A DNA stretch of 64,000 nt from Gnetum montanum (Eukaryota; Plantae; Gnetophyta). A model generated the notes under the pieces. The model saw only the letters and a program-made list of their open reading frames with translations, was not told the origin of the DNA and made no database searches. The stretch lies in NCBI GenBank assembly GCA_015680685.1, contig MNCI01001539.1, forward strand, positions 580,387 through 644,386. The letters run 5' to 3'. A program made the translations under genes and the position numbers. Shown piece by piece: positions 1 through 51,939 of this stretch. Position 1 is the first letter of the stretch; each line of letters starts with the position of its first letter.

Positions 1-3000
1 ATCTATCCTTTTTCTATTGTTCTTGCTTTGCGAACTCCCTTTCTCTTTGTTCTTGTTCTTTGCGCTGCATCTCTTCCCTAATCTACTTATGCAGATCATC
101 TTCCCTTGCACATCTGATGGTCGCCTTGTGTAGGTCTCTTCGGTGTTGATCTTCCTTGGCCACCTTGTTGCGGCATTGCTCCTCTTGCTCCACCAGCCCC
201 TTGTACCCTAGCTCATGTGCTTGCCACTTTTCCTTCCACTCAGCTCTTTCATCCGACTGAACCTTCATGACAACTTCTTTAGTTGTCCTAGCTAGATCAA
301 CATCAAATTTGGCATGGAGCTCTCAACGAATAGTTTTAGTTGGTAGTAGGGTTATCTCCTGTGTATTGGGTAGCAAAACAGTATTCGACTCATGCTTGTC
401 TCTAGAACCCTCCCCCTAGAATCACTAGCACATTTTGCACCAAAGATGAGGGTGCTTCCTTCATAACCCACATTCTCTCATAGACCACTGTGAATGACAC
501 CTATCCAATAGCGGGCATGTCAAGCAGCCACGTCACTTTCCAAAGAGTTAGGATAAGCCCTAGATGATGACCTCTACGCTGCTTGCATAGTGAGGCTAGA
601 AAGCACTTGGGAAGGTTAACTTTGCGGCCCAGCTGCAAACATTTCATGAAGTAAAGTGTGCTCCCTACAACTTCTAGACGTTGTTGGATTGCAGAAAGAA
701 ATGGTCAATTAGCTTAGTTGCATCTTGCCACAAATGTGGCAGAGTAGACTTGGGCACCTACTTGCTACTAGTTTTGGGCGAGCCCATCAAACAATCCCTC
801 TACATCTTGTAGTCCCCTCCCACTAGGCAGCATCCCCTCCCAATCCGTTGGAACCCCAAGATAGTTAGCCAAGGCATATTCAGTGAGGTTAATGTGAACC
901 CCTTGGAAAGTAGTGGAATCAGCCCTTCACTTTTTTGTAGAATGCATCATTTTCCTGTTTAGGATTTGTCACTAGTTGAGGCAGAAGATCTACCTAGCCA
1001 GCCCTTGAGACCATGCCCCAAAGCACCTGGTTGCCTTGATAGGCCTTGCATGTTAGCTCAAAATTAAGGTCCATACCCATTGTAGCAGTTGCCTCTTGCC
1101 ACAACTGAAATCCATGAGCAGCAACTTGCATGGGAGGAGGGAGCAGCTCTAACCAAAAGATTAGTTCATTGCGAGCGTGCCACAAGCACCAAAGGACAGC
1201 GGTCGTAGGTGCATCCCCACCCAGTTGAACTGGTAGTGGGAGCACAACAGAGTGCTAGACATTAACTAAGAAAGGACATTGGTAAATAAAGTGACACAAT
1301 GATTTGACCTCTGACCCACAAAGGGGATAGGTGTCATTGATATTAATACTGCACATCTTTAGCAAAACATGCACCATTAGTGTTCCTTGGGACACAAGCT
1401 AAAGGAAAGACTTTATTTTTTCTGTCAGTGGCTTGCCCAAATTGCCTTCCATCACATGATAGTTGGGTATTTATTTTTAATGATGTCTCATGGCTACATG
1501 CCCTACATTTCCCATTGCAACATCGCATGCATATGCCTGTAGATATCATGCCAAACATGTGAGTCCTAAGTACCCACGATCCATATTTGGTACTTGTTCT
1601 ATAGAATAAGAATCCATTGAGCTGAATAATCATTCTGTTGCATTAGCTTGTTAGTGAGGTGTTGGTACCCCATCATGATGGCATCATTGAATTTCAGAAC
1701 ACCTAGACTCCCTACCGACTTCGGTCTAGCCACCATCTCCTAGCAAACAAGATGCATGCACTCATGTGCTCATCCCCTTTACCATTGGACTATATAAAAT
1801 TACACACTAGTTGGTCCACTTCGTAAATGATTTCTTTTTGGGGGTAGCAACAAATGCAGCAAATTAGGCGATGGTAGACAACACAAAAGTTGCAAGGACA
1901 ATTTTTCCTTTTCTAGTCAAGAAGCACATGGTCCAGTGCCCAATCCTCTGTTAGATTTTTTGGATTAACTTAAGCCATGACATCTTCTTGTTCCAGGCAT
2001 ACATTGACATACTCAAATAGGAGTCCTGCATTGTTCCATGAAGATTACGAAGTTCTTGGCAGACCTGACCCTTGATTCTATTATTCGTGTTAAAGAAGTG
2101 TATCTTGGACTTCCCTTTGTTGAGTTCTAGCCCCACCTCTTTCGCCATCTTGCATAACGTCCTATTCATGGCCTGGGCTTGAGGAATTGCAGCATGAGCG
2201 ACCATGATAGTATCATTCGCATAATGTTTTGCAAGACACTTCACCCTCACAATCTCCAACCCCCTCACCCCTTCATTTTATAGTATAGATCCATCGTGTC
2301 CATAGCTATAATAAATAGGTATGGAGAGAAGGGGTCCCCTGTCAGCCCTCTAGTAGGGGAGGAAAACCCCCAAAGTCTTCTATTAATATCAAAAGAATAC
2401 GCACTTGTAGCTTGTAAGTTAATGCATAAGTTCACAAACTTTTGGTGATCTCCCTTTCTTAGCATTATTTCTCTAAGAGCGTTCCAGTGGCCTGTATTGT
2501 GTGCTTTAGTGATATCAAGTTTGATACACATACCTAGGAACTTAGTTTCCTGGATGGAGTGCATAATATCCTGTAATAGGATGATCTAATCTTGAATAAA
2601 TCTTTCTTTTATAAATCTAGCTTGTTGGGCACCTACCAAAGTTGGCATTAGTGGTTGCATCCTTTTGACCAAAATTTTTGTGAAGATTCACAAAAGGGTG
2701 TTGCAAACCCTAATATGCCTAAAATGGGACAACTTGGTAGGATTCATGGTCTTTGAAATGAGCACAATTCTAGAGAGTTTAACTCACGCTGAATCTATTG
2801 TCATTTAAGTATAAGGCTAAAGGCATCTAAAATGTTCCTTCCCAGTATGTTAGCATATTCTCTGAAAAATTCGATGGGTGACACATTGGGCCTTGGAGCC
2901 TTAGTAGATTTTAGCGACACCATGGCCCACTCCAGTTCTTGCTAGGTGATGGATGCAAGAAGCCTTTGATTCTCCTCCTCCCCAACCACCTATTGGATTA

Positions 3001-5500
3001 GGGCTGACATAGGGGGGCTTTCTCTCCTACTTTAGCTGTCAGTCCATTGGTTGTGCATTGCTTAGGCAATGTCATTGGTATCATGGATGATGGTGCCCTC
3101 ATGTATCAGGTGATGGATTCTCTTAGATTCATTGTTGGCTTTTGTTTTAGCAAAGAAAAATGGGGTGTACCTATTGCCATCCTTCAGCCCAAGAACTCTT
3201 GAACATTGCCTCCAATACTAGTCCTCTTTAGTCAACAACTCCTGGAGCTCAGTTAACAATTGTTGTTCTGCTTCTTCCAATGACTCACCCATCTCTTGTT
3301 TGGCCTGGATTTTTGACAATTTCTCCTTTAGCTCCATTTGGATTGATCGAAAGGAATATTTCTTGGTAATTTTTCTAGAGCAAATCTCTATCTTGAGCTT
3401 GGTGATGCCATGCTTCAGAAAATCCCGAGGATCCATTTGAGATAGGTAGTCAACCTAGATGCTATTGACCATAGGCCACATCCAGTGTTTAGACAGCTAA
3501 GACCTCTCAAAACGAAAATGAGTGGATGTATGTTGGGTTAGTTTCCACACATGGCACACCAGAGAGTGGTGATTAGAAGCTTGCTGCTCCCACCCATGAA
3601 CTTGAACCTTGTAGCTCACCAGAATGTTAGTGCTAACCCAGACCCTATCAACCCTTGACATGACCTGGTTATGCCCTTGCCTCCTATTGCTCTGTGTGAA
3701 AAGCATCCCTTGATGTCCATGTTAACTAGGTCATGATATTGGAGGAAATGTAGGAAGTATTGACTTCTTGGTGGAGATTCGGTACCCTCTCCAGTTTTCT
3801 CCCAAGTGTGGAGTCTTTGATTGAAATCTTGAATCAGAATCCATCATCTCCTGTCTGGAATATGTTGTGTGATCCTTGTTAGCTCATGTAGCCATTCCCC
3901 CTAGTCCTGCGGTCCATAGAAGTTGGTAAGCCAAAACCAAATCAAATGGTAGATGCAATAGAGTTGCAAGTTTGCCTACCCTACCCTTACAAGCCACAAA
4001 GTGGGCCTGCTAATTGGTCCAATGTGGTATGTGACATTCTCTATGTTGTAGTTTGGTTTTCTGCAAACACACCACATTGTAGTCTTCATCACACACAATT
4101 TCTTTTAGGGTACTTCTTTTATAGGGTGTACCTTGGCCTCTGCAATTCCAGGAAGGAATTCTCATGGTCTACTAGTAGATTGCTTTTTGTAAACCCCTTT
4201 TAGGATTGTTTGAGAACCTAAATCAATTTCCAGCCATGTCTTCGTGCTTTGAGATACTAGCCTTGGCAGCCACCCAACCTTCCTTGGCATGGACACCATA
4301 GGGAAACCCTGGTTGTTAGCCACAGCAGCCGTCACCGAAGCCTCCTCCATTCTATACATTGTCAAACCTCTTACTACCAAAACCTAGTCCCCCATTGGGG
4401 GAAGCTTCCCCCTCTTTTCATATGGAGTGCAACCTTTAGGGTTAGGAGGTGATCGTAGGCCCTTATCACCCACTTGACTCAAAGGTGGGGAAGATGGCCT
4501 TGACAACGGGACTACAGTAGCAGACATGGTTGCCCCCACCGGTCCACCAACATCCAATCCTCTGCAGTCCTCTACTTTGTTTAGTTTCTTTAGGGTGAAC
4601 CCTACATTCCTTAGACTTATGATTGCTTTTCCCACAAACGGAGTGGGAAGTAGCAGCCATATTCCTCCCTATTATGGGCTTATCTGTTGGCACGTTGTCA
4701 TATTCTACTTGAACTGTTCCTTCTCTAGGTGGTTGATCAAGGATAATCTCCCGTATCAGATCTTTGGTTGACAACGACCTCCAAACACAAAACCTTGCAT
4801 ATCGCATTCTTTCTTTGGATTCGGTAAACCTTTAGAAGGTAATGAACTCTTCGAAGAAGTCCCCAAGGGTTTTCAAAAACTTTGTTGTCTAAAGCTTCCA
4901 TGGCACGCTTGAGACACAGATCCAAACATGTGCCTGCAAGAAAAGATTTGGAGCCTTGTGCGCCCTTGGGTGTCAATGCGTGAGGGCCAGGCCCCTAGCT
5001 CTGAAGAACCATGGGCCTTCCAATAGCACCTTGTCTCGGTTGTTTGACAACTAGAACGCAAACAACAGTAGATCACTTGTCAAGGTTTGGATTTGCATGT
5101 CACTAATCCCGTAGGATGCTACAAACCACTTCTTAATCAATTCCATCCTAGGTTGCACGCCTGATGAAATGAACTGCCCCACTAGGCTTAACTCTAGAGT
5201 GCGTAGCCCCTTAGTCGGTGCTCTTTGGACTTGCAACCTCATGGTCCTTTCACTACGGGAACAAGTGTCTATCCCCTCATCATTGGGGTACTAGCTTGCT
5301 AGTCCATCCTTGCGGCCACCAGATCCTATGGCTCCACCTGCCGTCCTTGGCCCCCTATCACCCTTTGGAGGCCATGCAGCCCTACCCTATGAGTCCCTGT
5401 TCTCCCCCTCACCACTGTGCTGCTCTGCAGTCCTGCCTACCTCCGCAATGTCAGCTCCTAGACTCAGGTTTGCATCACCCGGGTGAAGATTAGCAGATTA
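1..5500 (-). mobile_element. Degenerate L1-type LINE (LINE-A): ORF1, ORF2 (endonuclease, RT, zf-RVT) plus C-terminal extension
   Basis: ORF1 fragments (PRMELIKKWF, RYARFCV, CGKSNHKSKEC knuckle); endonuclease (MSRVDRVWVS, SNHHSL); RT (IKLDITKA, RGLTGDPFSPYLF, HYANDT); post-zf motif LWCLWHARNELIF; many stops and frameshifts. Confidence 0.9.
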
Positions 5501-5504
5501 AGAG

Positions 5505-6683
5505 AGTTTATTTTTTGTTCTTTACTTTCTGCTCAGCATAGGTAGAAGATCCAGGGCCCTTTAGTTTACAGTTTTCAATTGGTATCAGAGCTAGGTAGCT
5601 CAAATTCTTGACAACAGATCTCTCCAGGATGGCCCAAAACAACGGGCCCAAAACAACGGATCCGTGTCTCTCCAAATTCCTGTATTCAATGGAGAAAATT
5701 ATGAATATTGGGCAATCAAGATGAGGACATTCATGATCTCACAAGATCTGTGGGATATTGTTGAAGGTGGCTTTCAAGATGCTGATCAAATTACATTCCA
5801 AGCCTTGACAGAAGATGAAAAAAATGAAGTCAAGAAGCTTCGGAAAAAGGATGCCAAAGCACTTTTCATCATTCAATCTGGGTTAGATCTGACAGTCTTT
5901 CCCAAAATAGTCATGCATCACACCAGCAAAGCTGCATGGGATGCACTGGAGATTGCATACAAGGGATCTTTGAAAGTTCGTGTTGTCAAGTTACAAGCCT
6001 TCAGGAAAGATTTTGAATCTCTGCAAATGCTAGATTCAGAAAATATCGAGCAATACATCAGCCGATTTCAACAAGTTCGAAATGGACTTGACTCCTGTGG
6101 AGAAACGCTTGAGGAAAGGCGTGCTGTTGAAAAGATCCTTCGAAGTGTGACCCGACGCTATGATCCCCTCGTCGTGGCTATTGAAGAAGCAAGAGATCTC
6201 GATAAGATGACCATGGTTGAGCTCGTAGGAAGCCTGAAGACATACGAGCAAAGAATTGCTGATCGTGAAGATACACCAGCCAATGCATTTCACACGCAAT
6301 TCCAGAGATCATCCAATCAACATCAACAATCCTCAAGTGGATCCTCCTTCAGAGGACGTGGACGCGGTCGCGGCAGATCTGGAGGTCGTGGTCGTGGACG
6401 ATCACCTCAATCAAATGATGGTAAGCATTGTGATTTCTGTGGTACCAACACCCACAATACTAATGAATGTTGGTCTAGGAAAAAGCATGAAAAGAAAGGC
6501 AAAGCAAAAATTGCCGAAGATGAAGGTCACCAACAAGGTGAACAATTGTTTTATACCGAAGAGGAGGAAAATCACCTCCTGCTCTCTACCAAGGCAACCG
6601 ATGCAAGCGACACCAACACGTGGTATGTGGATAGTGGGTGCAGCAATCACATGAGTGGAAACAAAACTCTCTTAATCTGCTAA
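5505..6683 (+). mobile_element. Truncated Ty1/copia: LTR end, PBS, gag and start of protease
   Basis: CA at 5576-77 then PBS TGGTATCAGAGC at 5580-5591; 339-aa ORF with FNGENYEYW, UBN2-like gag, CDFCGTNTHNTNEC knuckle, WYVDSGCSNHMSG. Confidence 0.92.
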
Positions 6684-6858: not shown

Positions 6859-8027
6859 AACTCTGATCTCATCTTATTAGGAAGGGATAAACGGATGAGA
6901 TCAATCTCCTAAATTTGTGGAATGTCTACTCATCATTTTCCACACCGGGTTCCTACCCATTGTCACCCTTCAAAAATAGCTCCTTGCTGTTTCATTTTTG
7001 GCCAACTTTTAAAGCTACCGATAGATATGTTTTGCCAACTTCTTGATCTTTGGTTTCAACAAATTTTATAATCCCACTCAGCAGTATATATAGTAAAGCA
7101 AATGATGTTCATAACTACTGTAATGAAAGTTTATAAACTGTGATCATACTGTGCAATTTGTGATATTTTTGGCTTTGACTGGATTAGCAGAAAGCATATG
7201 CAGATTGTTTGTTTCAGTTTACATGGAAAACATGGAAAGGCACAATATGCATAATAGCATTTTGTAATTTTTCCAGATGCCACAAGCAAGGAAGAGCAAA
7301 ACATGACTGGTGTATATGGTTAAAACTTTTAAATGCTGGTCTATATGGTTAAAACTTTGAATGCTGGCTTGTTTGATCAAATTATAGCTGCTTAGTTTCC
7401 GTCAACGGTAACTGTATGGCATTTTATTATTGTTTTCTTTACAATGAGTTTACAGCAAGCAAGGAGTATAGGAACAACAAAACCACTGTATGATATTAAA
7501 AGAAAGTTATCTCTTGCTTGAAGTACTGAATTGGCATGTGTTACTCTAGATGATATAGACCCATTTGTATATTATTCGTTGCTTTTATCAAGTATTACTT
7601 AAACATTTGAATTTTCTATGAAAAAATTGGCATTCATCAAACAGTTTGTTATTTTCATTATCTCTTATACTCCAAAACACATTAATTTAACCAGTCAATG
7701 GGTGACAATGAATAAATTCATTTTTAATCTTGTAGAAGACATAATCCAAGCATTCTTTGTACGGTGAAAAATCAAATGCTGTATAACCATTGGCATAATC
7801 AAATAATCAAATTTCATTTTGAAGAAATGATTAGTCTTTAATCTCAGGTGGTCCTATGTAGATTTTTATAATCCCTGAATTTGGTTTGAATCACAACACC
7901 TTACGTGAAGTACTATGAGATTAACATTATTATTAAACTTACAATGCATGGGTTCTGATTTAGTAGTTTAATCAGCTTTAATTTGACTGCTGGGAAAATT
8001 TATAATGAAAATCAATTCTTATGCCAG

Positions 8028-11760: not shown

Positions 11761-11985
11761 AATAGGCTATTTTGGTCCTCTCAATTTTAATGAGTGGGAG
11801 TTTCAAATTTTGAAGTACTATTTTGTTGAGCGGGAGTTTCATATTTTGAAGTACTATTTTGTTGGATGAGTGGGGTCCGCTCAAATTTTAATGAGCGGGA
11901 GTTTCAAATTTTTGAAGTTGGGACACTATTTATACATGTACCGGCATGCTCATTCCCTTGCCTTTGCAACTTCGGCTACTTGGTC

Positions 11986-12043
11986 GCATTGCCTAAACAC
12001 ACTAATGAGGGGTGAAAGTCCCCGAAAACATTTTGTATCACAA
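11986..12043 (+). ncRNA. Minimal type I hammerhead ribozyme motif, copy 1 (degenerate)
   Basis: ACACA-CTAATGA-GGGG TGAAAGT CCCC-GAAA-ACATT-T-TGTAT; core G5>A, stem III palindrome mutated. Confidence 0.75.
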
Positions 12044-12623
12044 NCTTTCTGTTTTTGGTTAGGTTTTAATCCTTTTGCAGGTTCTCCACGGGTTCTGATC
12101 ACGTTGCAGGATTATGCGGACCACAACATGTTTCTTCTTGATCCATGTTTTGACAACCGCCTTGCTTACGTTGGTCTTCTTGGTTGTGGTTTCTTTTGAA
12201 GCTGTTTTCTTCAGCTTCTTCACAGCCTCTAGCTGTTTCTTCTCCGGCGTCGTTGCAGCTCGTCACTCCGTTGCTGTTGAAGATCTTGTTCGTTGCTGTT
12301 TTTCAGCTGGACTTCTGCGTGCATGACATTCTCTGGTGTCGGACCCCTCATGTCCACCATTCAAACATGAGGGTTCCCCTAAACCCTTAGGACCCTTCGA
12401 CTCTTCCTTTAGATTCGATCTGTTGAATGTTTCATGTTTGCCTTTGAAATACTGCTTTGTAATAGTTTTGTCAGTACATTGTCCCACCCCCATCTCACCT
12501 TTGACGAGTGGGGTCCGCTCAAATTTTAATGAGCGGGAGTTTCAAATTTTTGAAGTTGGGATACTATTTATACATGTACTGGCATGCTCATTCCCTTGCC
12601 TTTGCAGCTTCGGCTGCCTGGCC

Positions 12624-12698
12624 GCATTGCCTAAACACATTGATGAGGGGTGAAAGTCCCCGAAAACGTTTTGTGTCATAATAGACGTTATGCAATGC
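12624..12698 (+). ncRNA. Minimal type I hammerhead ribozyme motif, copy 2 (C3>U)
   Basis: ACACA-TTGATGA-GGGG TGAAAGT CCCC-GAAA-ACGTT-T-TGTGT; stems I and II and palindromic stem III intact. Confidence 0.85.
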
Positions 12699-13748
12699 TT
12701 TGAGCTTTCTATTACTTTCTGTTTAACAATGTTTCTGTTTTACAGTATCTGCAATATTTCTCTCAGCCTCCCCGTTCTTTTCTTTGACGCACGAGATCAA
12801 ATTTCTAAAATTCTAATGTTTTTCTCTCTATCTCATTGCCTTGGAATTGCAGAGCCTTGCCTGACAGCGTCTTTCGCTATTCTTTGGATTCTAACCATTT
12901 TCAGATCTTTTTGTTTTTGGTTAGGTTTTAATCCTTTTGCGGGTTCTCCACGGGTTTTGATCACGTTGCAGGGTTATGCGGACCACAACATGTTTCTTTT
13001 TGATTCGTGTTTTGACAACCGCCTTGCTTATGTTGGTCTTCTTGGTTGTGGTTTCTTCTAAAGTTGTTTTCTTCAGCTTTTTCACAACCTCTGGCTTTTT
13101 CTTCTTCGGCGTCATTGCAGCTCGTCACTCCATTGCTGTTGAAGATCTTGTTCGTTGCTGTTTTTCAGCCAGACTTTTGCATGCATGACATTCTCTGGTG
13201 TCGGACCCCTCATGTCCACCATTCAAACATGAGGGTTCCCCTAAACCCTTAGCACCCTTCGGCTCTTCCTTTAGATCCGATCTGTTGAATGTTTCATGTT
13301 CGCCTTTGAAATACTACTTTGTAATAGTTTTGTCAGTACATTGTCCCACCCCCATCTCGCCTTTGATGAGTGGGGTCCGCTCAAATTTTAATGAGCGGGA
13401 GTTTCAAATTTTTGAAGTTGGGACACTATTTATACATGTACTGGCATGCTCATTCCCTTGCCTTTGCAGCTTTGAAAAACTTAATTATTTATTTATTTTT
13501 AGGACATTTAATAAAAAACTTAGAACGACAATATATTCCTAAGCATAAGTCCGATTGGGACAAAATTTGTACTGTTGGAATCATCTCAACAAGTACTGTG
13601 TTGGACATGGTTTTAGGGTCTTTTAGAATTTTAGAATTTTAGAAATTTGATCTCGTGCGTCAAAGAAAAGAACGGGGAGGTTGAGCGAAATACTGCAGAT
13701 ACTGTAAAACAGAAACACTATTAAACAGAAAGTAATAGAAAGCTCAAA

Positions 13749-13823
13749 GCATTGCACAATGTCTGTTGTGACACAAAACGTTTTCGGGGACTTGCACCCG
13801 TCATCAGTGTGTTTAGGCAATGC
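13749..13823 (-). ncRNA. Minimal type I hammerhead ribozyme motif, copy 3 (intact CUGAUGA/GAAA core, stem II closing mismatch)
   Basis: Minus strand: ACACA-CTGATGA-CGGG TGCAAGT CCCC-GAAA-ACGTT-T-TGTGT. Confidence 0.85.
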
Positions 13824-14610
13824 GGCCAGGCAGCCGAAGTTGTAAAGGCAAGGGAATGAGCATGCCAGTACATGTATAAATAGTGTCCCAACTTTAAAAA
13901 TTTGAAACTCTCGCTTATTAAAATTTGAGCAGACCCCATTCATCAAAGGCAAGATGGGGGTGAGACGATGTACTGACAAAACTATTACAAATAGTATTTC
14001 AAAGGCGAACATGAAACATTCAACAAATTGGATCTAGATGGCAGAGCTGAAGGGTGTTTAGGGTTTAGGGGAACCCTCATGTTTGAATGGTGGACATGAG
14101 GGGTCCAACACCAGAGAATGTCATGAACACAGATGTCTGGCTGATAACAGCAACGAACAAAGATCTTCAACAGCAACGGAGAGACGATTTGCAACGCCGC
14201 TGGAGAAGAAACAACCAGAGGTTGTGATGAAGCTGAAGAAAACAGCTTCAGAAGAAACCACAACCAAGAGGACCAATGTAAGCAGGGCGGTTGTCAAAAC
14301 ACGGATCAAGAAGAAACATGTTGTGGTCTGCATAATCCTGCAATGTGATCAGAACTCGTGGAGAACTTGCAAAAGGATTAAAACCTAACCAAAAATAGAA
14401 AGATCTGAAAATGGTTAGAATCCAAAGGACAGTGAAAGATGTTGTCAGGCAAGGCTTTGCAATTCCAAGGCAAAGAGATAGAGAGAAAAACATTAGAATT
14501 TTAGAAATTTGATCTCGTGCGTCAAGGAAAAGAACGGGGAGGCTAGGAGAAATACTGCAAAAACTGTAAAACAGAAACACTGTTAAACAGAAAGTAATAG
14601 AAAGCTCAAA

Positions 14611-14685
14611 GCATTGCACAACGTCTGTTGTGACACAAAACGTTTTTGGGGACTTTCACCCCTCATTAGTGTGCTTAGGCAATGC
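14611..14685 (-). ncRNA. Minimal type I hammerhead ribozyme motif, copy 4 (degenerate)
   Basis: Minus strand: GCACA-CTAATGA-GGGG TGAAAGT CCCC-AAAA-ACGTT-T-TGTGT; G5>A and G12>A. Confidence 0.75.
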
Positions 14686-17600
14686 GGCCAGGCAGCCGAA
14701 GCTGCAAAGGCAAGGGAATGAGCATGCTAGTACATGTATAAATAGTGTCCCAACTTCAAAAATTGGAAACTCTTGCTCATTAAAATTTGAGCGGACCCCA
14801 CTCGTCCAACAAAATAGTACTTCAAAACCATGTCCAACACAGTACTTGTTGAGATGATTCCAACCGTACAAATTTTGTCCCAATTGGACTTATGCTTAGG
14901 AATATATTGCCGTTCTAAGTTTTTCATTATATGTCCTAAAAATAAATAAATAATTAATATATTAAAATTGTTTTTGGCATAGGCTCTAATCATGAGGTAA
15001 AAATGCATTAAATGCTACTGGTTAGTTATAGCATTAAATGCAGTTATTTTTGTTAAGGTGAAAATGCAGTTGTAGCATAAAGAAGTCAGCAATCATCATT
15101 GCTGTGCTAGCTTGTATTTCTTTGAATGGATTTGCCTATATCCAATTTTAAGGATCACCATTGCATTTGTTGACTTTGTTCATTTTTGGGGTTAATGGTT
15201 AGCATGAGTGGGCAATGGAGGATATACATTTCAGTAATGTGGTGAATGGTGCTAAATCTATATGTTTCCATTTTGGTTTTATTGGTATATGTGAGCTTAC
15301 ATTTCAAACTTAAATTGTTGTGGCAAGAAAATAAAAAGGAGTTGCAACTTACAAATCTTTCAATGTGTGTACATGGCCAACGAAGATGGTGCCAACCTTG
15401 GCAGAGTAAAGGAGAGACTCTATGGCTTTGCACATGGACTAGCCCTCTCTCTGATACGGTTCATAAGGGGGCCATAATTTGGGTTTTGGAAGGATTGTAA
15501 GGATAAGCTCTAGGTGATGATGGATCCATAACATGGCAAATGGCGAAAACGAAAAGATAAATGCATAGCAATTGGCAAAGCATATATATACTTGAAGCTA
15601 AACATATTGAGTAGAGTCATGGTCAAAGTTTGTGTAAGAACCTAGCATGATAACGTGGACAACAACGACATCAAAAGAGTAGTAGAGGTTGGAGGTAGAG
15701 TTGCAGATTGGTAGGGCATGCACCATCAAGCATTGTAGGCTTTCAATGCATGGGGCATGAGAATGGGTATGCTTTCCATCTCATGATTTTTCACTATAAC
15801 CATCCATGGCTGATTGTTGGTAGTGCTTCCCATCGAGTGGCCAAATGAGTTTCATAGCAGTTGCTGGCTATTGGCATACGACAGGTCCCTTGGCAACAGA
15901 AACACATCGTGTGCTGTTGCCTTCACATGATTCAATGTGCTCTCGATCCTCTTATGACTTGCTGTAGCACCTATGGCCCTCCTATTACCTTCTACAGCTA
16001 AATGAAACCCTTGCCATTGCTCTGTGTTGCCACTCATATAGCACCTTGTTCACTGCGTTTGCCTTGCTTGCCATGCTACTTTATGCCCTTTTGCATGCCG
16101 CTACACTGTCTCTCCTGTGCCGCCCTTGTTGGAATCAAAAGCCCTTGTTGCATAACCAAGACTGTTGCTCCCTTCCCTTCCTCCAACATAATAGAGAAAG
16201 CCACTATGTTCCCAAAGATTTTAGGATGTTGTTCTCCTAGGACAACACGGTGACTTCTCATGTGCCGGGATTGGAGCAATCAAGAGCCTAGTTCTTGCTT
16301 GTGGAGAACAATTGGGCCCTGTCGTCCACCAACCTATTGATTGTTCTTGCAACTTCGTTAAGATGGTTGATGGTTGGATAGTACACTGAGGACTTGCCAC
16401 CAGCCTTGGAGGCTTGTTGCTATTGCTATTGTTCCTTAAGTTTCATTAGGCATTCAAACGCTTCTACCACCTTTGGTATCATCTCGAATGTTGGTGGTGG
16501 TAGTGGAGGTGGTGCTTCTTCTTGGAGCTTGGCAAGGGCATTATTCTTCATCATTTTCTACCAAGATGCGGCAAGGGCCTTGTGGATTATATTGTTGGAG
16601 TAGGACTTGTAGGTTCTGGATCGGGAGATCTAAGTTCTTCCCCGTCTTCCTCCTCAAGAATTAGTGGTTCATGCAAAGGTTTGCAAACAGAGGCTTGAGA
16701 TTGTTCAACCTTAGTCCTCCTTGGTCTATAGAGCTTGGATCACAATTGCCCCAACATGATAAGCTGTGAAATCTCCTAAAAAATTAAGTGAGTTCCCCTA
16801 GGCATCATACTACCTTTGCAAAATTTCCGCATGAAAACAACGATAAGTACATACTTGGGGGACACTTGAAAAAAGCATCCTCACAATCATTGAATCATGG
16901 TGTGCATGGGAATGTATGAAAAAGGTAGAAATATTTAAATAACTACCAAATACACTACATGCATACCTAAATTGGTGTTTGTCCCATACGACTAAGTTAC
17001 AAGACACCAGGCTTGAATAATAGCTAGAACACCAAGGATAGGAAGAATTGTAAAAATATTATCAATATGTTCATTAGGGTAAAAAATGATAAAGTTTCGC
17101 TTGTTTTTGAAGACTAGAGGCAAGGAAAGCAAGAAAAATTAGAGAGGGCAAAGTGTGGGATGTGTTTGGGAGGCCCCCACACTTTATAGTGGCCTCTTGC
17201 TGTAGGGGGTTCACTAGTGATGCCCCTGCATTGATGTAGGGGGTGCATCAGCACACCCTTCCAAGCAAAGGAAAACACCAAACTTCTCTCTCTTGACCTC
17301 AAACTTACCTTTTGCCGCCTCTAGAGCTTCACACAAGGTCCTCAACATGCTAAATTCATCCTGAATTGACCTCACAAGACATACAAGGAGCAAGGCAACA
17401 AGAGCATTGTAAACTTATCTCAAATGACATCATAGATCATGGGAAATAAGTTGATTGATCAATATATGCATTCCATGATCCCAATACTAGAAAAGAGGGG
17501 TTAGAACAACTAGAGAACGGTTATAGCTCCAAAAATAATGAAATAGAGGCACAATGGAGGTGAATCGATAGGGGTTGTCATGATCAAACCTTGGAGAACA

Positions 17601-18689: not shown

Positions 18690-21425
18690 TGTACAAACAG
18701 ATAATTGTGGAATTACATTGCTCTTCCCATAACCTCTTCTCTCTTTTCCCTTTCTTCTATTCTAAACACGAAGGAGAGAAGAAAAGATTGGAAAAATAAT
18801 TGTCTCTCTCTCTCTCACATTCATTTTGAATCAACAATTACAACAATTTATAGGAAAGAATTACAATAGGAAATCTACTAAATAAGGAACAAGAAAGCTG
18901 GAAAATAACTGACAGATATTGATGATAGAAATTGATTTAGAGAATCAACTAATTTTGGTAAGTTAACCCATAAAATCAGGCCCTAATTGATCAGACTTTA
19001 TTCTGACTTTCTAACACTCTCCCTCAAGTTGGTGAATAGATATGTATCCTCCTAGCTTGCTAACAATAGAATCAAAGCTTGGTTTGCATAAGGCCTTCGT
19101 GAGAATATCAGCTTTTTGCATCTTGGTAGAAATCTAGGATAGAGCAAATGTTCCATTGTTAACTTTGTTTTTTTATGAAATTCCTATCAATTCTTACATG
19201 CTTCATATGATCATGTTGGATTGGATTTTGGATGATATTGATGGTAAACTTACTGTCGCTAAACAACCTCATCGTACCACTTTGGGGTATCTTGAGATCT
19301 TCCATCAACCTTTGTAGCTAAATGAGTTCACAAATTCCTTATGCTATAGTTGTATATTCAGCTTCTGCCCTACTACGTGCGACAACAAATTATTTTTTGC
19401 TTCTCCACATTACTAAGTTTCCCCAAACCTTGGTACAATACCTTGTAGTAGACTTGCTGTCTTCAATTACTTTGGCCCAATTTGCATCAACAAAACCAAC
19501 AATGTTCCTTTTATTGTACTTCTTGAATAATAGTCCCTTCCATGGGTAGCCCTTTAGATACCTTAGAATCTGATTTACAACATCTTGGTGTCTCTTTGTA
19601 GGAGCATGCACGAACTGGCTAACAATACTTACGCTGAAAGCAATATCTGGCCTAGTGAGAGACAAATAGATGAGTTTATCAACCAAGCGTTGATAGCTTT
19701 CTCGATTTACAAGAGGATCTTCTTTAGGAGTCTTTTGTTTCTAGTTTCATTTGCTAGTCTACACCTCATCTTGCCAGTCTCTTTGAGTAAATCCATGATA
19801 TATTTCCTTTGGGAGATGAAAATCCATTTCTTGCTTCTAGTAATTTCCCTTCTCCAAAAATACTTCAGTCGACCAAGATCTTTGACTCTGAACTCTGCTT
19901 GGAGCTTTCTTTTGAGATCTTCAATCTCATGATCATCATCTCCTGTAATCACTGTATCATCAACATAAACAATAAGGGTTGATCTTTTACCATGCTTCCC
20001 TTCTTTAACAAATAAAGTATGATTGGCTTGTCCTTGTTCATATTGAAGTTGCTTAATCACACCACTAAATTGAGTAAACCAGCCTTGGGGAGATTGTTTG
20101 AGTATGTAGAGTGACTTTTTTAATCTACATACTTTACCCGTACCTTCTTGAGATTCAAAAGCAGGTGGTATCCTCATGTAAACTTCTTCTTCCAATGTAT
20201 CATTTAGGAAGGCATTTTTGATGTTGAGTTGATGTAGCCCCCAATCCAGATTTGCAGCTAAAGACAACAAAACCATAATAGATTTGAGTTTTGCCAAAGG
20301 AGCAAATGTTTCTGCATAGTCTATCTCATACATCTGGGTGAACACTTGTGCCACAAGTTTGGCCTTGTATCTTTCAATGTTGCCATCATGACCATACTTG
20401 ATAGTAAACACCCATTTGCTTCCCACAAGTTTCTTTCCTTTAGGTAGGTGGACTATTTCCCATGTTTCATTGTCTTCCAAAGCCTTCATTTCCTCCATCA
20501 CAGCTTCCTTCCATTTGGAATCTTCCAAAGCCTCAAAGATATCCCTCGGAAATTGTGTCTCGTCAACCTTTGAAAGAAATGCTTTGTAATTACATGATAA
20601 CTTGGAGTATGTGAGATAATTAGAAATGAGATATTTTACACATGACCTCACCCCTTTTCTAACCGCAATTAGAAGATCCAAGTCATCAATCTCTTCATGA
20701 TCATTCACCACCTCAAAATGCTCTTGTATGCCTCCATTAGTTGGGTCTATCAATGGTTTGGGCTCTTGGTTTTGTTGAGGAGCTTGTGGCCATCTATAAT
20801 GTCCCAGAAAGTTGGTTTTGGGTGTGATTCTCCCCCTAGATTCGAATGTGACTCTTGGATTGATTTGACATGAGGTGTGACATGATTTTCTGATGTGAAC
20901 TCAAGCATAGCAATTGGTAGAGATATGATTGAATCCCAATGTTGCTCTTTTGTAGGTTGATTCTCCCCATGAAGAGTAACATTGGGATAAAAGAGTTGGT
21001 GTTCAAGAAATGTGACATCACATGATACAAAAACATGTTTTAAAGGAGGGTAGTAGCATTTATACTCTTTTTGTGTAGTAGAATACCCTAAGAATACACA
21101 CTTGAGAGCTTTTGGATCAAATTTTCCATGATTTGGTTGAGTATTGTACATATATGACACATCCAAAGATAGGAGGTGGAAGAGTGTTGAGAATTCGTGT
21201 AGAAGGAAAGGCTTATAAGAGAAGACTTAGTGGAGTTTGATATTGAAGAGTTTTAGATGGTAGTTGATTAATGATATATGCAGAGGTGAGAATAGCTTCT
21301 CCCTAGAAGGATTGAGGAACATAGCTAGTAAACATAATTGATTGAGCTACCTCTAGAAGATGTCTATTTTTTCGTTTTGCAACCCCATTTTGTTGGGGTG
21401 TATAGGCACAAGAACTTTGCAGGAT
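18690..21425 (-). mobile_element. Degenerate Ty1/copia 3' half (INT, RT, RNase H, PPT, 3' LTR)
   Basis: YTPQQNGVAKRKNRHLL, KCVFLGYS, LHQLNIKNAFL, LIVYVDD, TRPDIAFSVS, GFVDANWA; PPT gagggagag followed by TGTT at 19016. Confidence 0.92.
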
Positions 21426-21838
21426 AAAACAACAATAACAAGAAAGACAAAAGCCACAACCCTCAAAAAAAGAAAAAAGAAAAAAACTCACCTAGCCACA
21501 CCAAACAAAAGTTGACCCACCTACAAACAACCTAAAGATGCATAGGGAGCATCGAGCATCTATAGTAGCACCTCTCTTGGTTGTGAATGGTATCTAGCAC
21601 AACCCTATTGCGCTCCATGGCCACAAAGGTCGTCTTCCACTGAAATTCCTTGAAGCTTGCTTCCTTCCTTGCCCACTCCTCAGCATTCCACTACTCATCC
21701 GGATGCAGTTTTTAACTCTGGTGTTGGATATGCCTCCAGAGTGTGGCCCATGGAGTGCTATGCCTGATGTCCAAAATCATGTAGGGGCATCTCCCCTCCC
21801 GTAGCCATGCCTGTGTATGATCTTTGTGGGCTTGATCT
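21426..21838 (-). mobile_element. Probable 3' end/UTR of LINE-B, separated from its body by the copia insertion
   Basis: Same strand as LINE-B; coding-like sequence ending in a T/GT-rich tail that abuts the copia integrase near 21425. Confidence 0.5.
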
Positions 21839-25625: not shown

Positions 25626-25626
25626 N

Positions 25627-28600
25627 ATTTGGTTCCTCTTCCTCTCATTGTTGCCATGCCTCCCTCATGCTCCTCCTAGAGCTCCTCTTGTATTTGTTGT
25701 CATAGCTCCTCTTCTAGCTCTTGCCTAGTCGTTGCCTCTGCCAAATTTCGTTGCACCCATTTTGCCCTCGCCACCTCCCTTAGCTGTTCGAGTTCTTCGC
25801 TGGAACTCCTCCTTCCTCCATCTCAGCCATTCTAGCTCCAGTTGAAATTTGTCCTGTGCTTCTCCTTATGTGCTCGCTCTACTACTTCCAAATTTGCCAA
25901 CTGCCCTATTGTTCTTGACATCCCCACTCTTTCATCCCCTCTCCCTTGCGCATTCAAAGTTCTAGCCCCCCCCACCCACCCCCTGTCCTTGGGGCCCTTC
26001 TTGCCTCTCTTGGGGCCGCAACGACTTGCCCACCTTCTTCGCCCTAGTAACCGTATGGTTTGTGCTCGTCTTTGAAGCCACCTCCTTCGACTCACTCAAA
26101 TCGATAGAGGTATCTACCACCGATGGTGGGACGCACCACCTTTGTTGTCATTTGTACACCGCCTGCACCATTGGAGCCCCAGGTGGCCCTAGGACCCTCC
26201 TTGGTGGTGCATGTCCCCTCACCGCCTACCAAAGCACAAGAATGAGCCCCGAGTGGGGCCCCCACCTTCTTTGGTGCAACACCCCCAAAAAGTAACGAGA
26301 CAGGTTCACCACAATTCCCCTCTAAAGGCACTGCAGGAAGCCAAAATGCATCCCCAGCAGCTTTCACGTGTTGCCCGAGTGGACGAAAATTCGGTCCACG
26401 AGCATCGCAGCGTCCTACTACATAAGCTCCAAAGCAAACTTAGGGACTTGTTCACTAGCCGTCTTGGGCATTATCCTTCGGAAGAACTCCCGTGCATCTT
26501 GTAGTCCTCTTACCTGCAAGTACTTGGCGATGGTTGCCTTAATGAGCATAGTTATCACCCCTTGAAACCAAGTGATATTCCCAAGCCAATTGTTATAGAA
26601 TGGCCCGTCCTCTAGGTCAAGGTTCCCTCGGCTCTAGCATTGGGGCCCAACCCATCTTGTCCACTAGATGCCACATAACCGAATTAGTGCAGTAATTCTC
26701 ACATGATGACTCGTATGTTGGAGTTACCCCCATGGCCACCTGCGCTTCCCTCCATGCTCAAAAACCTGTAGTTGCCACCTGTGCCAGTAATAGTGGAGCA
26801 ATGTCCTTGAAAATTTGGAAGTTTATGGTTTGCCACAATTGCCAGAGGATGGTTGCGGTAGGTGAGTCCTTGTCTAGCATAATCGGTAGCGAAATTCACG
26901 CAGCTTGCTTCACCCATGCCAAATAAGTACACTACCATGCAAGATGTTCCACTATTTCCTCCCTTGCCATGCAGAGGGGACATGTGGCGTTCACCCGTAA
27001 CCCCCTCCTCCACAACATGTGTTGCACGAGGATAGCACCATGTCTCATTAACCATAGAAAAAATTTAATTTTTTTAGGGAGCTTGCCTTGCCATAATTGT
27101 TGCCACCCCTTGACAACAAGGTATTGATGCTTGATTAGCTGCGTTGGCTATGCATTCATTAGCCTCAACAGTAAAATCCTTTGCATGTGCATCACTAAAG
27201 AGCACCAAAAACTTGAATCACTACTCACGGCCTTCCATTGCTGGTACTTCTGACGCGTGATTTGCACCCGCTAGGCCGGGTAACGATCTTGATCACAAAA
27301 TTGTCGTAGCAACCCTTGAAGCCCCATGGGCTAGACATTAGCAAAGCTTAGCAGTCCTAGACCTCTCGCTTGCTTTGGTCTTGCCACGGTACCCAATGCC
27401 ACTAGATGCATCCTACCATTCCCTTTACCCCCTGACCATGTGAAATTCCGCACAATGCAGTTGACTTTCTTTGTCACCTCAATCGGAAGGGAGGTGGTAG
27501 ATGCAATGAATCTAGCCATAGCCTACAGAATTGATGAAGCTAGAACCAACTTCCCCACCCTAGAAAGAAACCGAGTAGTCTAGTGACTAACTCTTTTTTG
27601 CATTCTTTTGATTAGGGATTCCCAAACCTATTTTCTGTGCCAATCATAAAGAGGTAATCCTAAGTAGGTATCCTCCCTAGACCCCAGTAAGACCTCCAAC
27701 AATTGGACAATTCTCCACCGTATTGTTTGCTCAACATTAAGCAAATGTACCAGGGGGCCCAATCTCATCGGCCATTTGGAGGAGAGCCTAGTTAATAGCA
27801 AGTACTTGGGGAATCATTACCCTAGTGAACAAGAACATATCATTAGCATAGTGTTCTACCAGGCAGTGCACACCCCCAATGATTAGGCCTCTAACCCCTT
27901 TTGACTTGCAATATGTGCTCATGGCATTCATCACAAGAATGAACAGATAGGGTGATAGGGGGTCCCCTTGTCTTAACCCCCTTTTGGGGGACGTGAACCC
28001 CCATAGTCCTCGCGCCCCCCTACCCACCCAAAATCCAAGAAGAATGCACTTGATTGCTATATATGTAGGCACAATTTCACAAAACGTGGGTGAAATTCTT
28101 ACATAACATGATTTGCTATAGGGCACTTTAGGAAACTGTGTCATACACCTTAGTTATGTCTAATTTCAAACATATGCCTAGAAACCTCGTTAATCGAAGT
28201 GAGTGCAGCACCTCCTGCACTAGAAGAATTTGATCTTGCAAATATCTACCTTTGACAAAACCAACATGTTGTTTTCCAACTAGGTGCTGCAGCATGGACG
28301 CCAGCTGTGCCACCAACATTTTTGAAAGGAGTTGGATCAAAGTGTCACACACCCCAATAGGATGAAAGTGTGTTGGGCTTAAGGAGTTTGATGACTTTGG
28401 GATCAACACCAGTTGTGAGTAGTTAATCTCACATCTCACTTGTCCCCAAAATAACATCTCATTGAATGCTTCCAAGATATTTTCCCCCATCTCATTGTAA
28501 AATGTCCGAAGAACTTCATCGGCCACCCATTAGGACTTGGTGACCTTCCCCGCTTCATGGATGCCAACGCCCCCTCCAACTCACCGCTAGTAAAGAGCAT

Positions 28601-43112: not shown

Positions 43113-46100
43113 GAAGCATAGGCGGGAGATGGGTGGAAGCGTAGGGAGTGCAAGGAGCCTAGGGGGTGTCGGGGCGGAGAGTTTGAGCAGGGGGAGGTGA
43201 AGTGCTGGTGGTGGTGGTCTTGGTCTAGGTGGAGAAGCAGTAGGCTTAGTTGGTGATGGTGAAGATGGTCTTTTCGATCTCGATGTAGGTCTCAGCTTGG
43301 ATGAAGGTGGGGTTCAAGGCAAGCTAGGTAATGGGGGCATGGTGGATTGTGCACTCAAAGCAATTTGAGGTGTTGTCGCGTCTGAGTGATGGGGGTATAG
43401 ATGCTTATTCCTATCGGGAGGGTGTCATGCATTTGTAGGTTCATTAGATGCTAGAGGATGGGCTGCGAACCGTGAAGCTTAGCTTGGTGGAAAAAATTGT
43501 TTCTAAGTGGGCTCGGCCCAAAATGGAACTCATTAAGAAGTGGGCAACCACAAATAGATTTGTAGCTTGGTGGACAATCTGCTACCAATGCCTTCATGGT
43601 TTGGAGAAGTATGGGGGTGACGTTGATGACCCTCTTGGTTGTCAACATTTTTTGCAGTTCCTTTAGGATCATGATCTGGTTGATGTGAAACTCAAAGGTT
43701 GCAACTTCACTTGGTGCAACCAACGCTAGGGGAGAGAGCAGATTATGACTTGAATTGACAGGGTTTGGGTTAGCACCAACATCTTTATGAATTGGGAGGT
43801 TGTTGCTTTTGGTCAAGAAAGGTAGGCCTATGATCATAGGTTAGTGGTGTGTTAGGTGGACACACCTTCCTTCTGTGGGTCTAGTCCTTTTAGGTCTTGT
43901 GCAGTCTTAGTTATCCAAACCTTGGTTGTAGTCATTGGTTGAAGACATCTAGGCTAGTTATCCAAATCGAATGGACCCACAGGGGCTTTCAAGGTTGAAG
44001 TAGGCGATTAAGTCCAAGAGGACAGTAGAGAAATATTCCTTTTGGGCAATCAAGCTAGTGTTGAGAGTGAAGCTCTTTGCTATTCAAGCTAAGTAGGAAT
44101 ACAAGGATCAACTTCTAGAAGAAGAACATGTTGTGCTATAGGAACTTCAAGAGATCTCCATTGAGGAGGAACTATACTGGTAGTAGATGTCTATGGTCTA
44201 GTGGCTGAAGGATGGCAACAAGAACACTAGGTTCTTTTTCACTAAGGCTGAGGCTAACTATGAATCTAAAAGGATTCATCAACTCCTACACAGGGAGAAA
44301 GCTTCATGAATACCTCCAATATTGCTCAAATTATGCAAGAATACTAGATTGGCATATGAAGTTATAGGAAAACCTTGTTCGTCTTAGCGCCAATCCAACT
44401 AGTGGTGGATGTAGAAGAGAATAATATCTTGATTGCCTTGTTCACTATGGGTGAATTGGAATTGGGCATGGCCTCCCTGAGAAATGCTAGCGCCCTAGGT
44501 CCTGATGGTTGGAATTTTTTAAGGATTTTGCTAACATCTTAGGCGACAATATCCTTGATGCCTTCACTTTGATGCTTCAATGGTAGTAGGTGAGTCATGA
44601 AATCAATTGCTCTTGCATTGTGCTCATCCCTAAGGTCTCGAATCCCATAGATCCTTCCTAATTTAGACTAATTGGGGTGTGTAATACACTGTTGAGACTT
44701 TTCACAAAGGTTCTTGTTTGTAGATTGGCACCATTAATGCCAAAATTGGTTGGAGCACAACAAATGGGATTCATTAAAGGTCACTTCATCTAGCATCACA
44801 TTATTCTCCCCCAAGAAATCTTGCACTCCCTGAAGGAGACTAGGTACCTAGGCATGTGTCTCAAGCTTGATATAGCATATGATACCATTAATTGGATGAT
44901 GCTGAGATATATCATAAGTAAGAAGGGTTTGTACCTGAATTTCATTAATCTTTGCATACAACTCCAAGAGTATGGCACTTCTCTTTTGACATTAGTGGTA
45001 AAATTTGGAGGTTTTCTTCTCTTGGACGAGGATTAAGACAAGGAGATCCCTTGTTGCCCTACCTCTTCATACTAGCCATGGACATGATGTGTATGTACTA
45101 TAAATGTGAAAGGGTTAGAGAATTGCAAATTGCAGAGTGGAGTGCCTGGTGGAGCACCATGTCAATGATACCATCCTGCTCTCTAGGGCGGAAATTCCCT
45201 AGCCTCATGCGCTGAACAGAGTTCTTAGCAGGATGGCCACAGAGATGGGACAAGAAATAAATAGAGGTAAGTTTGCTTTGCATGTTTTTAATGTTGATGG
45301 TAGTGTTAAGGGTTTGGTTGGACAGGTTCTAGGCATTCTTCCTAGATCGTTAACAGAGTCTTATTTGGGCATACCATGTATGCTTGGAATCAAAAGGGTT
45401 CCTAGTCCAACTTGATCCAAAAAATCCAGCAATGAATTGGGCATTGGACTAATTGGTTCATCACTTGGAAGGGATGAGTTATCTTAGCAACTTCGGTTCT
45501 CTCTACCATTGCTTGCTTAACTGCTTTTGTTGCCAATCCCTCGATGGTTGTTATTCAGTAGGTGGATCAATTAATTTGGAATTTCATTTGGGGGCAAAGG
45601 AGGAGAGCACATGCACCTCATTTGCTAGGACACGATTACGAAATCAAAGGCGGCTAGGGGCATGGTCTTGAAGTTTTAGGATGCCATCACCATGGGGCAT
45701 CAACACCTCATTAATTGCCTAATATAGGCCAATGATTATGCAACACAATGGGTTCTTGTAATAAGAACTAAATACCGACAATGGAGGGCAAACACCCGAG
45801 ACTCTTATGTTTGGTAGGCCTTATGTAGGTATGCCAATATAATGTCCCAAAATAACTAGATGGGAGCACATTTGTGGGACATTCTAAAACACAAGTACCC
45901 AGTGGTTGAGGGCTGGAAGTGCATTTGGGCAGGGAGACTTCCAGAGAAAATAAGTCTTTTTGTGGTTAGCATTGCATGTTGCTTTGCAACTCCGCTATTT
46001 CCTCTATGCATGGGGTATAAACATCCCTGTCGCTTGTCCTCTTTGTTCTTCTATGTCAGAATCAATCTGTCACTTCATCTCCTAGTGCGCTTTCTCTGGT

Positions 46101-47110
46101 GCTATTTGGCATGTGGTGGCTTTGCATCCCACTATTGCCTTGAACGGAGATTCTTAGGCTATGTCCATGCTTTGGTGTTTGTGGAAGGCATGCAATGTGC
46201 TGATCTTTCTATCGATGTTGCTTCTTCCTCCTGCATAGATTACGACACTTGGGGCTTAGATTGTGGCACGAAGCTTCAAACACAATGGGGGCCACTCCCA
46301 TGTTTGAGCCCACTTGCCAGGGATATTGAGGAAATTAGGTCCTATGAGGTATGGTTTTATGTGTGGGTTGGGCAGACCTTCCATTAGTAGAAAGGGATCC
46401 AGAACTAGTTGATAGGGCCTTCTTTTGCAATTGGAGAAATGACTTGACTTTCTATTGCGGGGTGTCGATTACCCTGACCAAAGCTGCCATTTTTGGTTAC
46501 CTGGACATTTCCATGTTGGGAGAGGTTATCCTTCCTAGGGGGTGGGGTCTCTAGGATGTGGCGGAGTTTTTTTAGGGCCCCTAAAACTGGAAGTGGGCAA
46601 GTTCCTAAATTAGCCTTGTCACTGATGTGGTAGGATGCTATTGAGTTGGTTGACCAGTTCTTTATCTAGTCTAGTAATGTTTGGAAACTCAAAGGTTTGC
46701 ACTTTCACTTCTTGAAGTGCCTTTGGTAGGGATGTAGTGTGAACCTTCCAAAATTTTTTCTGGCTACTCTACAACATTAGAGATAGGGCTGCCTTTTGGG
46801 GCTCATTCTTGCTCTGTGGTGGGCGACACACCCTTTGACTCCATGGCTGGATTGGCCTATTATTGCTGTTTGTGGACATTGTTGACTCATTGTGCAACAC
46901 CCCATGGAGGATGAGGTCCGGGTTGAGGTTGGCACAAGATCCCTTGCTAAGGAGCCATAGGGTCAAATCTTTGTTGCGGATGTCATTAAGGCCATGGAAA
47001 GTGGAGTTGGAGCTAGCTCCAGTGGACCGTCCTTGGTCCCCTGGGAGTTGCAAGGGGAGTTTCATCAAAATTGGTAGGAGGTGCTATAGGTTTTGGGGGT
47101 TAGCACCTTT
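43113..47110 (+). mobile_element. Degenerate L1-type LINE (LINE-C) with internal ORF1/endonuclease deletion and C-terminal extension
   Basis: WARPKMELIKKW joined directly to endonuclease sequence; LKLDIAYD, RGLRQGDPLLPYLF, WKCIWAGRLPEKISLF. Confidence 0.9.
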
Positions 47111-51240: not shown

Positions 51241-51939
51241 AAGGCAAAAGGCAATGCCACACGATTCTCAAATGCAAAGAATAAAAACGCAATTCATTAT
51301 AAGACCAGCTGATGGACATGTAAGTCCACATGGTAGTGGTAAACAATAAGAAGTTGCAATTCATTATAAACTCTGAAGTCTAATCATGTTTTCTGATAGG
51401 AGTATGTTATAACACTGGACAATATATTCTTGTTTTGAAGAAAAAATCGAGGGCATATAATATTACAGAATGTACAAAGTACAAGCTAAAGGAGAGAGAG
51501 AGAGCTCCCAAGAAAAGAAAATTCAGTAGCAAACACAACCAAAAGCATGACGGTATCTCCCTGCTACTATAGTAGAGATTAGAAACAAAATAAACAGTGA
51601 CGATTTAAATGATCAGTGGGCTCCATTTCATGACCTAGATCTCCTACAAAACTGATAAACCTAACAATCATGCCTCTATCAAATTTGCAGTAAAGAGAAG
51701 TCATCTCGGAAAAAGGCAAAGTAATGCAAGGATAGTTAGCTTGCAACTCTTGATGAATTTCATTGAAAATATCTCTTTCCTCCTGTACTTGATGAAGTTC
51801 ACCACTTGTCGGAAGGTCTGGTATTTCTTTGTTCTCTGTTTTATTTCTTTTGCCACCGAGGCTTTAACCTTATCTAGTTGGTTGGCAAAGGAAACATACA
51901 TGATGTAAACTTTGAGATCAGTCCAAGCTGTGAAGCAAT

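Follow-up and report, generated by a model that had tools for sequence, protein, structure and literature searches.

The first 5.5 kb on the minus strand of our window, a 64,000-nt stretch of Gnetum montanum DNA, correspond to a decayed plant L1-type non-LTR retrotransposon (LINE-A), in which the second open reading frame (ORF2) continues beyond its CCHC knuckle into an extra domain of ~160 amino acids. We could confirm that this fusion is real, old and held under selection, and that the observation is wider than first noted: four elements, namely LINE-A, two further LINEs of the window and an independent element on contig L001, have a colinear architecture and lack an RNase H signature. Linker and domain evolved under selection at the protein level, and in L001 they are read in a single frame with the knuckle. 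The architecture is firm, and a link of the domain to the Transposase_32 proteins of plant LTR retrotransposons is probable.

An additional domain at the ORF2 C-terminus in three LINEs of the window

The features of LINE-A and the corresponding regions of LINE-B and LINE-C are as follows.

4784..5152, minus strand: LINE-A ORF1, DUF4283 domain (Pfam PF14111, E 2e-15)
3718..4165, minus strand: LINE-A ORF2 start (ATG at 4165) and APE-type endonuclease region, decayed (from the sequence)
2289..2732, minus strand: LINE-A reverse transcriptase, matched part (RVT_1, E 1.4e-7)
1264..1431, minus strand: LINE-A zf-RVT CCHC knuckle (PF13966, E 7e-4, under the Pfam cut-off)
1021..1263, minus strand: LINE-A post-knuckle W-x-x-W-x-x-R-N motif and conserved coding linker, in the knuckle's frame (codon-position test, p 2e-4 and 4e-5)
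about 535..1020, minus strand: LINE-A extra domain of ~160 amino acids, in the slot of RNase H in Ta11-type L1s (alignment, profile search, codon-position test)
1..420, minus strand: LINE-A charged tail (frame translation; the element leaves the window at position 1)
26226..27132, minus strand: LINE-B knuckle, linker and extra domain (Pfam, alignment)
45951..46822, plus strand: LINE-C knuckle, linker and extra domain (Pfam, alignment), with LINE-D directly behind

DUF4283 is given as the dominant ORF1 domain among plant L1s in the available text of PMC5203782, in keeping with a plant host. In the endonuclease region of LINE-A, an Exo_endo_phos_2 match at 3927-3718 stays under the Pfam cut-off (E 0.007). 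The earlier note had described an extra segment at 530..1245 from a series of quoted peptides, and all of these were recovered in our minus-strand translation. A GTG-to-TAG ORF at 1245-994 (minus strand) carries LWCLWHARNELIF at ~1194 and continues into GNQVLWGMVSRAG followed by a stop; FQGVHINLT...GRGLQDVEGLF is reached via a +1 shift near 937, PKTSSK...GAHF lies past a frameshift near 779, and YFMKCLQLG...GLILTLW past one near 653. The continuity after the knuckle stood, and the bounds were refined, with motif and linker at 1263-1021 and the domain at about 1020-535. The knuckle's frame extends across the W-x-x-W-x-x-R-N motif and the linker to about 937, and the domain is interrupted by stops as well as by the frameshifts near 937, 779 and 653. 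According to the frame translation, another frameshift near 430 opens the tail, whose proposed charged character is borne out by its composition over 340-2 (K+R 25%, D+E 23%); from this stretch of sequence we infer that it may form a coiled coil. Over positions 1-1267, 7 letters and 2 gaps distinguish the window from the contig of the best-matching public sequencing run, so that some of the breaks in LINE-A may be allelic or assembly errors.

A translated self-search of the window revealed three further LINEs (B, C and D). The extra segment is present after the knuckle in both LINE-B (about 26-30 kb, minus strand) and LINE-C (about 43-47 kb, plus strand), and the zf-RVT matches of these two copies are above the Pfam cut-off (E 9e-15 and 6e-10, respectively). 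LINE-B is open in one frame from 26615 to 26226, with a 33-nt in-frame deletion, and a charged tail runs after its domain up to an N at 25626. LINE-D (47-51.3 kb, plus strand, about 47000-51250) lies directly behind the LINE-C domain; it stops just before the knuckle and thus cannot be scored for the extra domain. The adjacent LINE-C and LINE-D both lack 3′ ends.

From knuckle to domain end, the DNA alignment of LINE-A, LINE-B and LINE-C is colinear. Mean amino-acid identities over the matched segments are 41% (A-B), 50% (A-C) and 42% (B-C), indicating that the three are separate old families and not recent duplicates. The listed indels are each restricted to one copy, with the exception of the site near A 779, at which both A and C show an offset relative to B. 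Tails of different copies do not align to one another; the 3′ end of A is outside the window, that of B falls at an N, and C is abutted by D.

Coding constraint and an independent element with a DnaJ end

The codon-position test counts the alignment columns that are invariant in A, B and C at each codon position, with the C-half of the domain phased on the open frame of copy B. The following counts were obtained for positions 1, 2 and 3.

Knuckle: 17/52, 25/52, 8/51 (p 0.0014)
Post-knuckle: 14/47, 23/46, 5/47 (p 2e-4)
Linker: 23/50, 22/51, 6/50 (p 4e-5)
Domain N-half: 20/43, 23/44, 7/43 (p 2e-4)
Domain C-half: 40/81, 50/81, 15/81 (p 2e-8)
Downstream of the domain: 5/37, 1/37, 8/35 (p 0.99), bias absent

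The 287 codons hold 30 stops, none of which is common to all three copies (0/287); at four codons a stop occurs in two of them, and half of the stops (15/30) are a single C>T or G>A change away from a sense codon of another copy. One two-copy site (A 1107) falls between knuckle and domain, with a different stop codon in each of the two copies, and LINE-A and L001 read sense there. Codon-position bias and stop pattern together indicate that, in the frame of the knuckle, linker and domain have evolved as protein.

An unfiltered HMMER search of 1.84 billion representative proteins with a profile built from the window only returned a single match (P0002, E 1e-5). Its contig L001 carries a full-length LINE (34% GC) with DUF4283, endonuclease, reverse transcriptase and zf-RVT matches in Pfam, of which endonuclease and knuckle are above the cut-off, and it shares 34-37% identity with the window copies. 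Between 4808 and 5941, knuckle, linker and domain of L001 are read in one frame, which contains 4 stops in 378 codons compared to 22 and 40 in the other frames, and all six landmarks fall in this single frame. Frameshifts between reverse transcriptase and knuckle mean that L001 is not an intact ORF2, and no intact copy of a domain-bearing LINE was seen, every copy in the window and in L001 being broken. The distance from the motif to the domain end is 639 nt in L001, 631 in A, 595 in B and 626 in C. Searched alone against the six frames of the window, the L001 domain found copy C (E 2e-8) and copy B (E 5e-6); the pieces of LINE-A reached only E 0.02 and 0.06, with a best E of 3.6 in the reversed control. 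Among PDB sequences, the best matches of the L001 reverse transcriptase were human L1 ORF2p, an assignment by PDB search and not by a tree.

Thus, the in-frame fusion of an extra domain to the C-terminus of a LINE ORF2, as the earlier note had claimed, is upheld by the codon bias across the linker and the single frame of L001, and we found no shared stop or element boundary between zf-RVT and domain. Alternatively, the domain could belong to an ORF3 of its own, or be left over from an LTR element that inserted downstream of ORF2, with an in-frame junction that is apparent only. All copies are broken, the codon of 1107 is a stop in two of the three window copies, and nested elements abound in the region, which speaks for this alternative. 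However, when read in the frame of the knuckle, the linker has the same codon-position bias (p 4e-5), L001 has its single frame, the spacing is near-constant in the four elements and the 1107 stops of the two copies are not the same codon, all of which renders a separate ORF or remnant very improbable.

The tail of L001, reached after one further shift, spans 658 codons, is charged, and contains 9 stops compared to 37 and 76 in the other frames. It ends in a DnaJ domain in the tail's frame (7540-7780, plus strand; PF00226, E 8e-9, above the cut-off), which also matches PDB J-domains (E 2e-6). In this decayed copy the position of the HPD motif reads YLD, and a short A9 run is located downstream of the DnaJ domain near 8010. 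Neither the J-domain nor the tail of L001 had a match in the window, where A, B and C all lack their 3′ ends.

A search for proteins of near-equal length yielded no more than two pieces, which stem from a single 13.4-kb contig, and word-indexed protein searches, a weak line of evidence, gave no match among longer proteins. Such long ORF2s are apparently missing from protein databases, which suggests that standard annotation overlooks them. Pattern scans were likewise negative for the copy C domain in metagenome contigs, for the L001 knuckle-domain region in viral contigs, and for the L001 reverse transcriptase in genome and viral contigs.

The stretch is wholly or partly present in 12 of 24 listed public runs from 5 studies, with at least half of its words in 6 of them; contigs or reads were aligned to it for four of the 24 runs. 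Two DNA runs, one from each of two organisms, have a summed contig depth of 45-81 over 562-1122, compared to about 7-10 for the contigs of the locus itself, which shows that further copies at 80% identity or more are present in both organisms, the depth being no copy number and the best run possibly the source of the window itself. Single contigs of two DNA runs bridge the knuckle side to the linker, the linker to the domain, and the domain to the tail. The LINE-A shift at 936 is absent from two contigs, and that at 779 is absent from the contig of a related organism. None of the indexed runs listed as carrying the stretch is an RNA run; raw RNA reads (296 in X17, 231 of them less than 90% alike, and 23 in X14) reach a depth of at most 1 over the domain and were not used as evidence.

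Relation of the domain to RNase H and to LTR-element accessory proteins

In descriptions of plant L1s, ORF2 terminates either with the knuckle or with an RNase H. Ta11-type L1s, as far as they are covered in the available parts of PMC5348765 and PMC5203782, share with the present elements a DUF4283 ORF1, an APE endonuclease, an L1-type reverse transcriptase and a CCHC knuckle plus an added C-terminal domain; in Ta11-type L1s, this domain is an archaeal-like RNase H that follows the CCHC motif at the end of ORF2 (PMC5348765). In contrast, the added domain described here is not RNase H by any test, and it is followed by a long charged tail, with a terminal J-domain in L001.

The absence of an RNase H motif that had been noted for LINE-A holds for all the elements. 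Pfam gave no RVT_3 or RNase H match in the domain at E up to 10 (up to 1 in one of the searches), PDB profile searches with the domain listed no RNase H chain at E up to 10, and an RNase H-type motif after the knuckle was found in none of the four elements. Moreover, the domain profile listed neither the Ty3 nor the Copia RNase H regions of the window, and the conserved positions of the domain are mostly hydrophobic or aromatic. These observations largely refute the idea that the elements are ordinary Ta11-type L1s that have kept a strongly diverged RNase H at its normal position; the domain does sit in the RNase H slot (PMC5348765) and most plant ORF2s combine RVT_1 and RVT_3 in the accessible text of PMC5203782, but we regard that idea as exceedingly unlikely. 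A domain other than RNase H that is kept across 35-50% protein identity indicates that the C-terminal slot of ORF2 is swappable.

The earlier note had compared the domain to Transposase_32. Pfam HMMs listed no family at E up to 10 for the domain pieces, including the least decayed one from L001 (the queries being pieces with X at stops), so that Transposase_32, ATHILA and PMD were all missed and the gathering threshold for PF20167 was not reached; we do not file the domain as a member of PF20167. In the ESM Atlas, when the query was the C-half of the L001 domain, which is free of stops, and the search was restricted to named clusters, Transposase_32 (PF20167) accounts for 26 of 30 named neighbours, with a best score of 0.91, 153 of 256 shared features and a recognition of 2368, and ATHILA reaches 0.86. 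The 153 features shared with the first match are fewer than the 170 typical of true family members, and the scores obtained lie where shuffled proteins get 4-10 times in 100. An unfiltered Atlas query with P0002 gave a list headed by unnamed clusters, with Transposase_32 in 14th place (0.89, low recognition). Both Atlas queries overlap, cover the C-half only and come from L001 and not from LINE-A, and they are counted as one weak line of evidence. This result gains some weight because Transposase_32 had been named in advance from the motif.

AlphaFold2 models are of low confidence (pLDDT 45 for the domain and 55 for its C-half, from alignments of 8 and 5 rows), and fold searches with them returned nothing in BFVD at E below 1, nothing in the PDB with Foldseek at 0.001, and generic helices in a wide search with VIA (best Z 5.3). 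Neither PF10536 (PMD) nor the VANC entry 9LNK was matched in sequence or fold searches, the models being too poor to exclude them. The resemblance to Transposase_32 thus keeps weak backing from the Atlas and gets none from Pfam HMMs or the low-confidence models.

The domain alignment used (A7) has imperfect gaps in its N-half; the misaligned versions A2, A4, A6 and A8 were discarded. An apparent internal repeat of the two domain halves derived from misaligned alignments (hhalign probability 0.1) and was rejected. PDB sequence matches to L22 and Dps (E 0.02-0.05) were treated as chance, and an env-like reading was dropped, since transmembrane segments are not apparent (the highest 19-residue hydropathy is 0.8 in L001 and 1.3 in B). 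A Transposase_32 protein was not found among 48 other ORFs scanned (47 from the window, one from L001).

Transposase_32 may be linked to the PMD/VANC fold, and the N-half motif of the extra domain may resemble PMD. Transposase_32 is related to Athila ORF1, as stated in the available text of PMC11728184. By language-model features, Transposase_32 (PF20167) and ATHILA ORF1 (PF03078) of plant LTR retrotransposons (PMC11728184) are the nearest named neighbours of the domain, which is probably a remote relative of these accessory proteins. An extended coiled coil is predicted for the Athila protein (PMC13547354), a likeness to the charged tail that follows the domain here; the Transposase_32/ATHILA proteins differ in being encoded by a free-standing ORF of an LTR element, whereas the domain here is fused to a non-LTR reverse transcriptase and lies under Pfam detection.

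A second possibility is that the fusion is real and the domain unrelated to LTR accessory proteins, being instead a lineage-specific C-terminal extension of L1 or a captured host domain that binds element RNA or scaffolds the ribonucleoprotein. It would account for the lack of a Pfam match, for the single match in 1.84 billion proteins, itself another LINE, and for Atlas scores that shuffled proteins reach 4-10 times in 100. On the other hand, 26 of 30 named Atlas neighbours belong to one plant transposon family that had been named beforehand from the motif, and we consider an unrelated domain somewhat unlikely.

Possible role of the domain and neighbouring features

On balance, we lean towards an L1 lineage with a fused, likely Transposase_32/ATHILA-type, chromatin-facing accessory module that acts in cis. 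One ancestral ORF2 frame would have comprised endonuclease, reverse transcriptase, CCHC knuckle, linker, the extra domain of ~160 amino acids and a variable charged tail, and the product was very probably translated as one polypeptide without later cleavage. L1 ORF2p binds its own RNA and is present at the target site during target-primed reverse transcription. By analogy, the ORF2p proposed here might bind its own RNA and carry the extra domain to the target site in the course of this reaction, and the domain might there bind DNA or chromatin factors and shield the new copy from silencing or steer insertion; such a chromatin-facing role in anti-silencing or targeting is a tentative suggestion, and its main rival is a role in RNA binding or scaffolding. 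Equally tentatively, the charged tail may oligomerise and the terminal J-domain of L001 may recruit Hsp70. Most non-LTR elements rely on host RNase H, and the present element would do so as well.

Precedents for parts of this model come from other elements, as far as the available portions of the sources go. In PMC13547354, coiled-coil pentamers are predicted for the Athila domain and for VANC, and numerous host partners for accessory proteins; VANC, a factor that counters silencing, is there related in structure to MAIN, a PMD protein. PMD is fused to transposases in some MULEs, for which an anti-silencing use was speculated (PMC5418596). The PMD proteins MAIN/MAIL1, the PMD-MULE fusions and VANC (PMC5418596, PMC13547354) thus provide a precedent for a chromatin-regulator domain on the core enzyme of a plant element, with anti-silencing proposed; in contrast to these DNA transposons or Gypsy elements, the carrier here is a LINE without a PMD Pfam match. 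Insect R1 LINEs with a viral SF1 helicase at the ORF2 C-terminus (PMC4686597) likewise have an extra ORF2 domain, discussed as counter-silencing, but differ from the present LINEs in clade, host kingdom and domain. With most subscription journals and Repbase outside its scope, the search of full-text literature brought up no LINE whose ORF2 carries a Transposase_32-like domain or a J-domain.

Taken further, an old plant L1 lineage could have swapped its RNase H for a Transposase_32/PMD-superfamily chromatin module that serves as a cis anti-silencing factor, with a tail that keeps gaining host modules such as the Hsp70-recruiting J-domain; we regard this scenario as speculative and rather doubtful. 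A domain that is kin to Transposase_32/ATHILA could also have its source in a host gene or in an element of another class, or have been passed on by the LINEs themselves as donors, and it might aid nuclear import or particle assembly instead of anti-silencing. In the accessible text of PMC7264820, functions of additional ORFs are given as unknown and nuclear roles as proposed, and PMD has moved between genes, Gypsy and MULE elements in a direction left unresolved in that of PMC5418596. Both points fit such another origin, and nothing speaks directly against it, but we judge it to be unlikely.

Under the favoured reading of a fused Transposase_32-like module, the lineage may link non-LTR elements to LTR accessory proteins. 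Since L1 proteins preferentially act on the RNA that encodes them, a fused copy permits a clean deletion test of what the Transposase_32-like domain does.

Further features were observed outside the LINEs. A stop-free ORF of 162 codons at 55617-56102 (minus strand) has a faint likeness to the domain (profile E 0.11; hhalign probability 4.7%) and no Pfam match, and is possibly a free-standing remote relative of the domain, or a chance similarity. A charged, helix-prone frame at 52950-53330 (minus strand) resembles the LINE tails and adjoins a Copia reverse transcriptase fragment at 53449-53949 (plus strand). At 51582-51863 (minus strand), a weak match to the C-terminal region of exocyst Sec15 (E 0.0012, under the cut-off) may mark a host exon, in which case the LINE cluster could lie within long introns. 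A Copia gag at 5595-6680 (plus strand) adjoins the 5′ end of LINE-A, and a long Copia pol ORF (929 codons) together with a second Copia reverse transcriptase lies behind the LINE-B tail at 19710-25402 (minus strand). Beside the N at 25626, a direct repeat of 219 bp occurs at 21846-22064 and 25407-25625. The region 11774-14957 is a nest of direct and inverted repeats of 0.1-1 kb that are 91-97% identical, and a Ty3/Gypsy element with reverse transcriptase, RNase H and chromodomain is located at 61472-63998 (minus strand).
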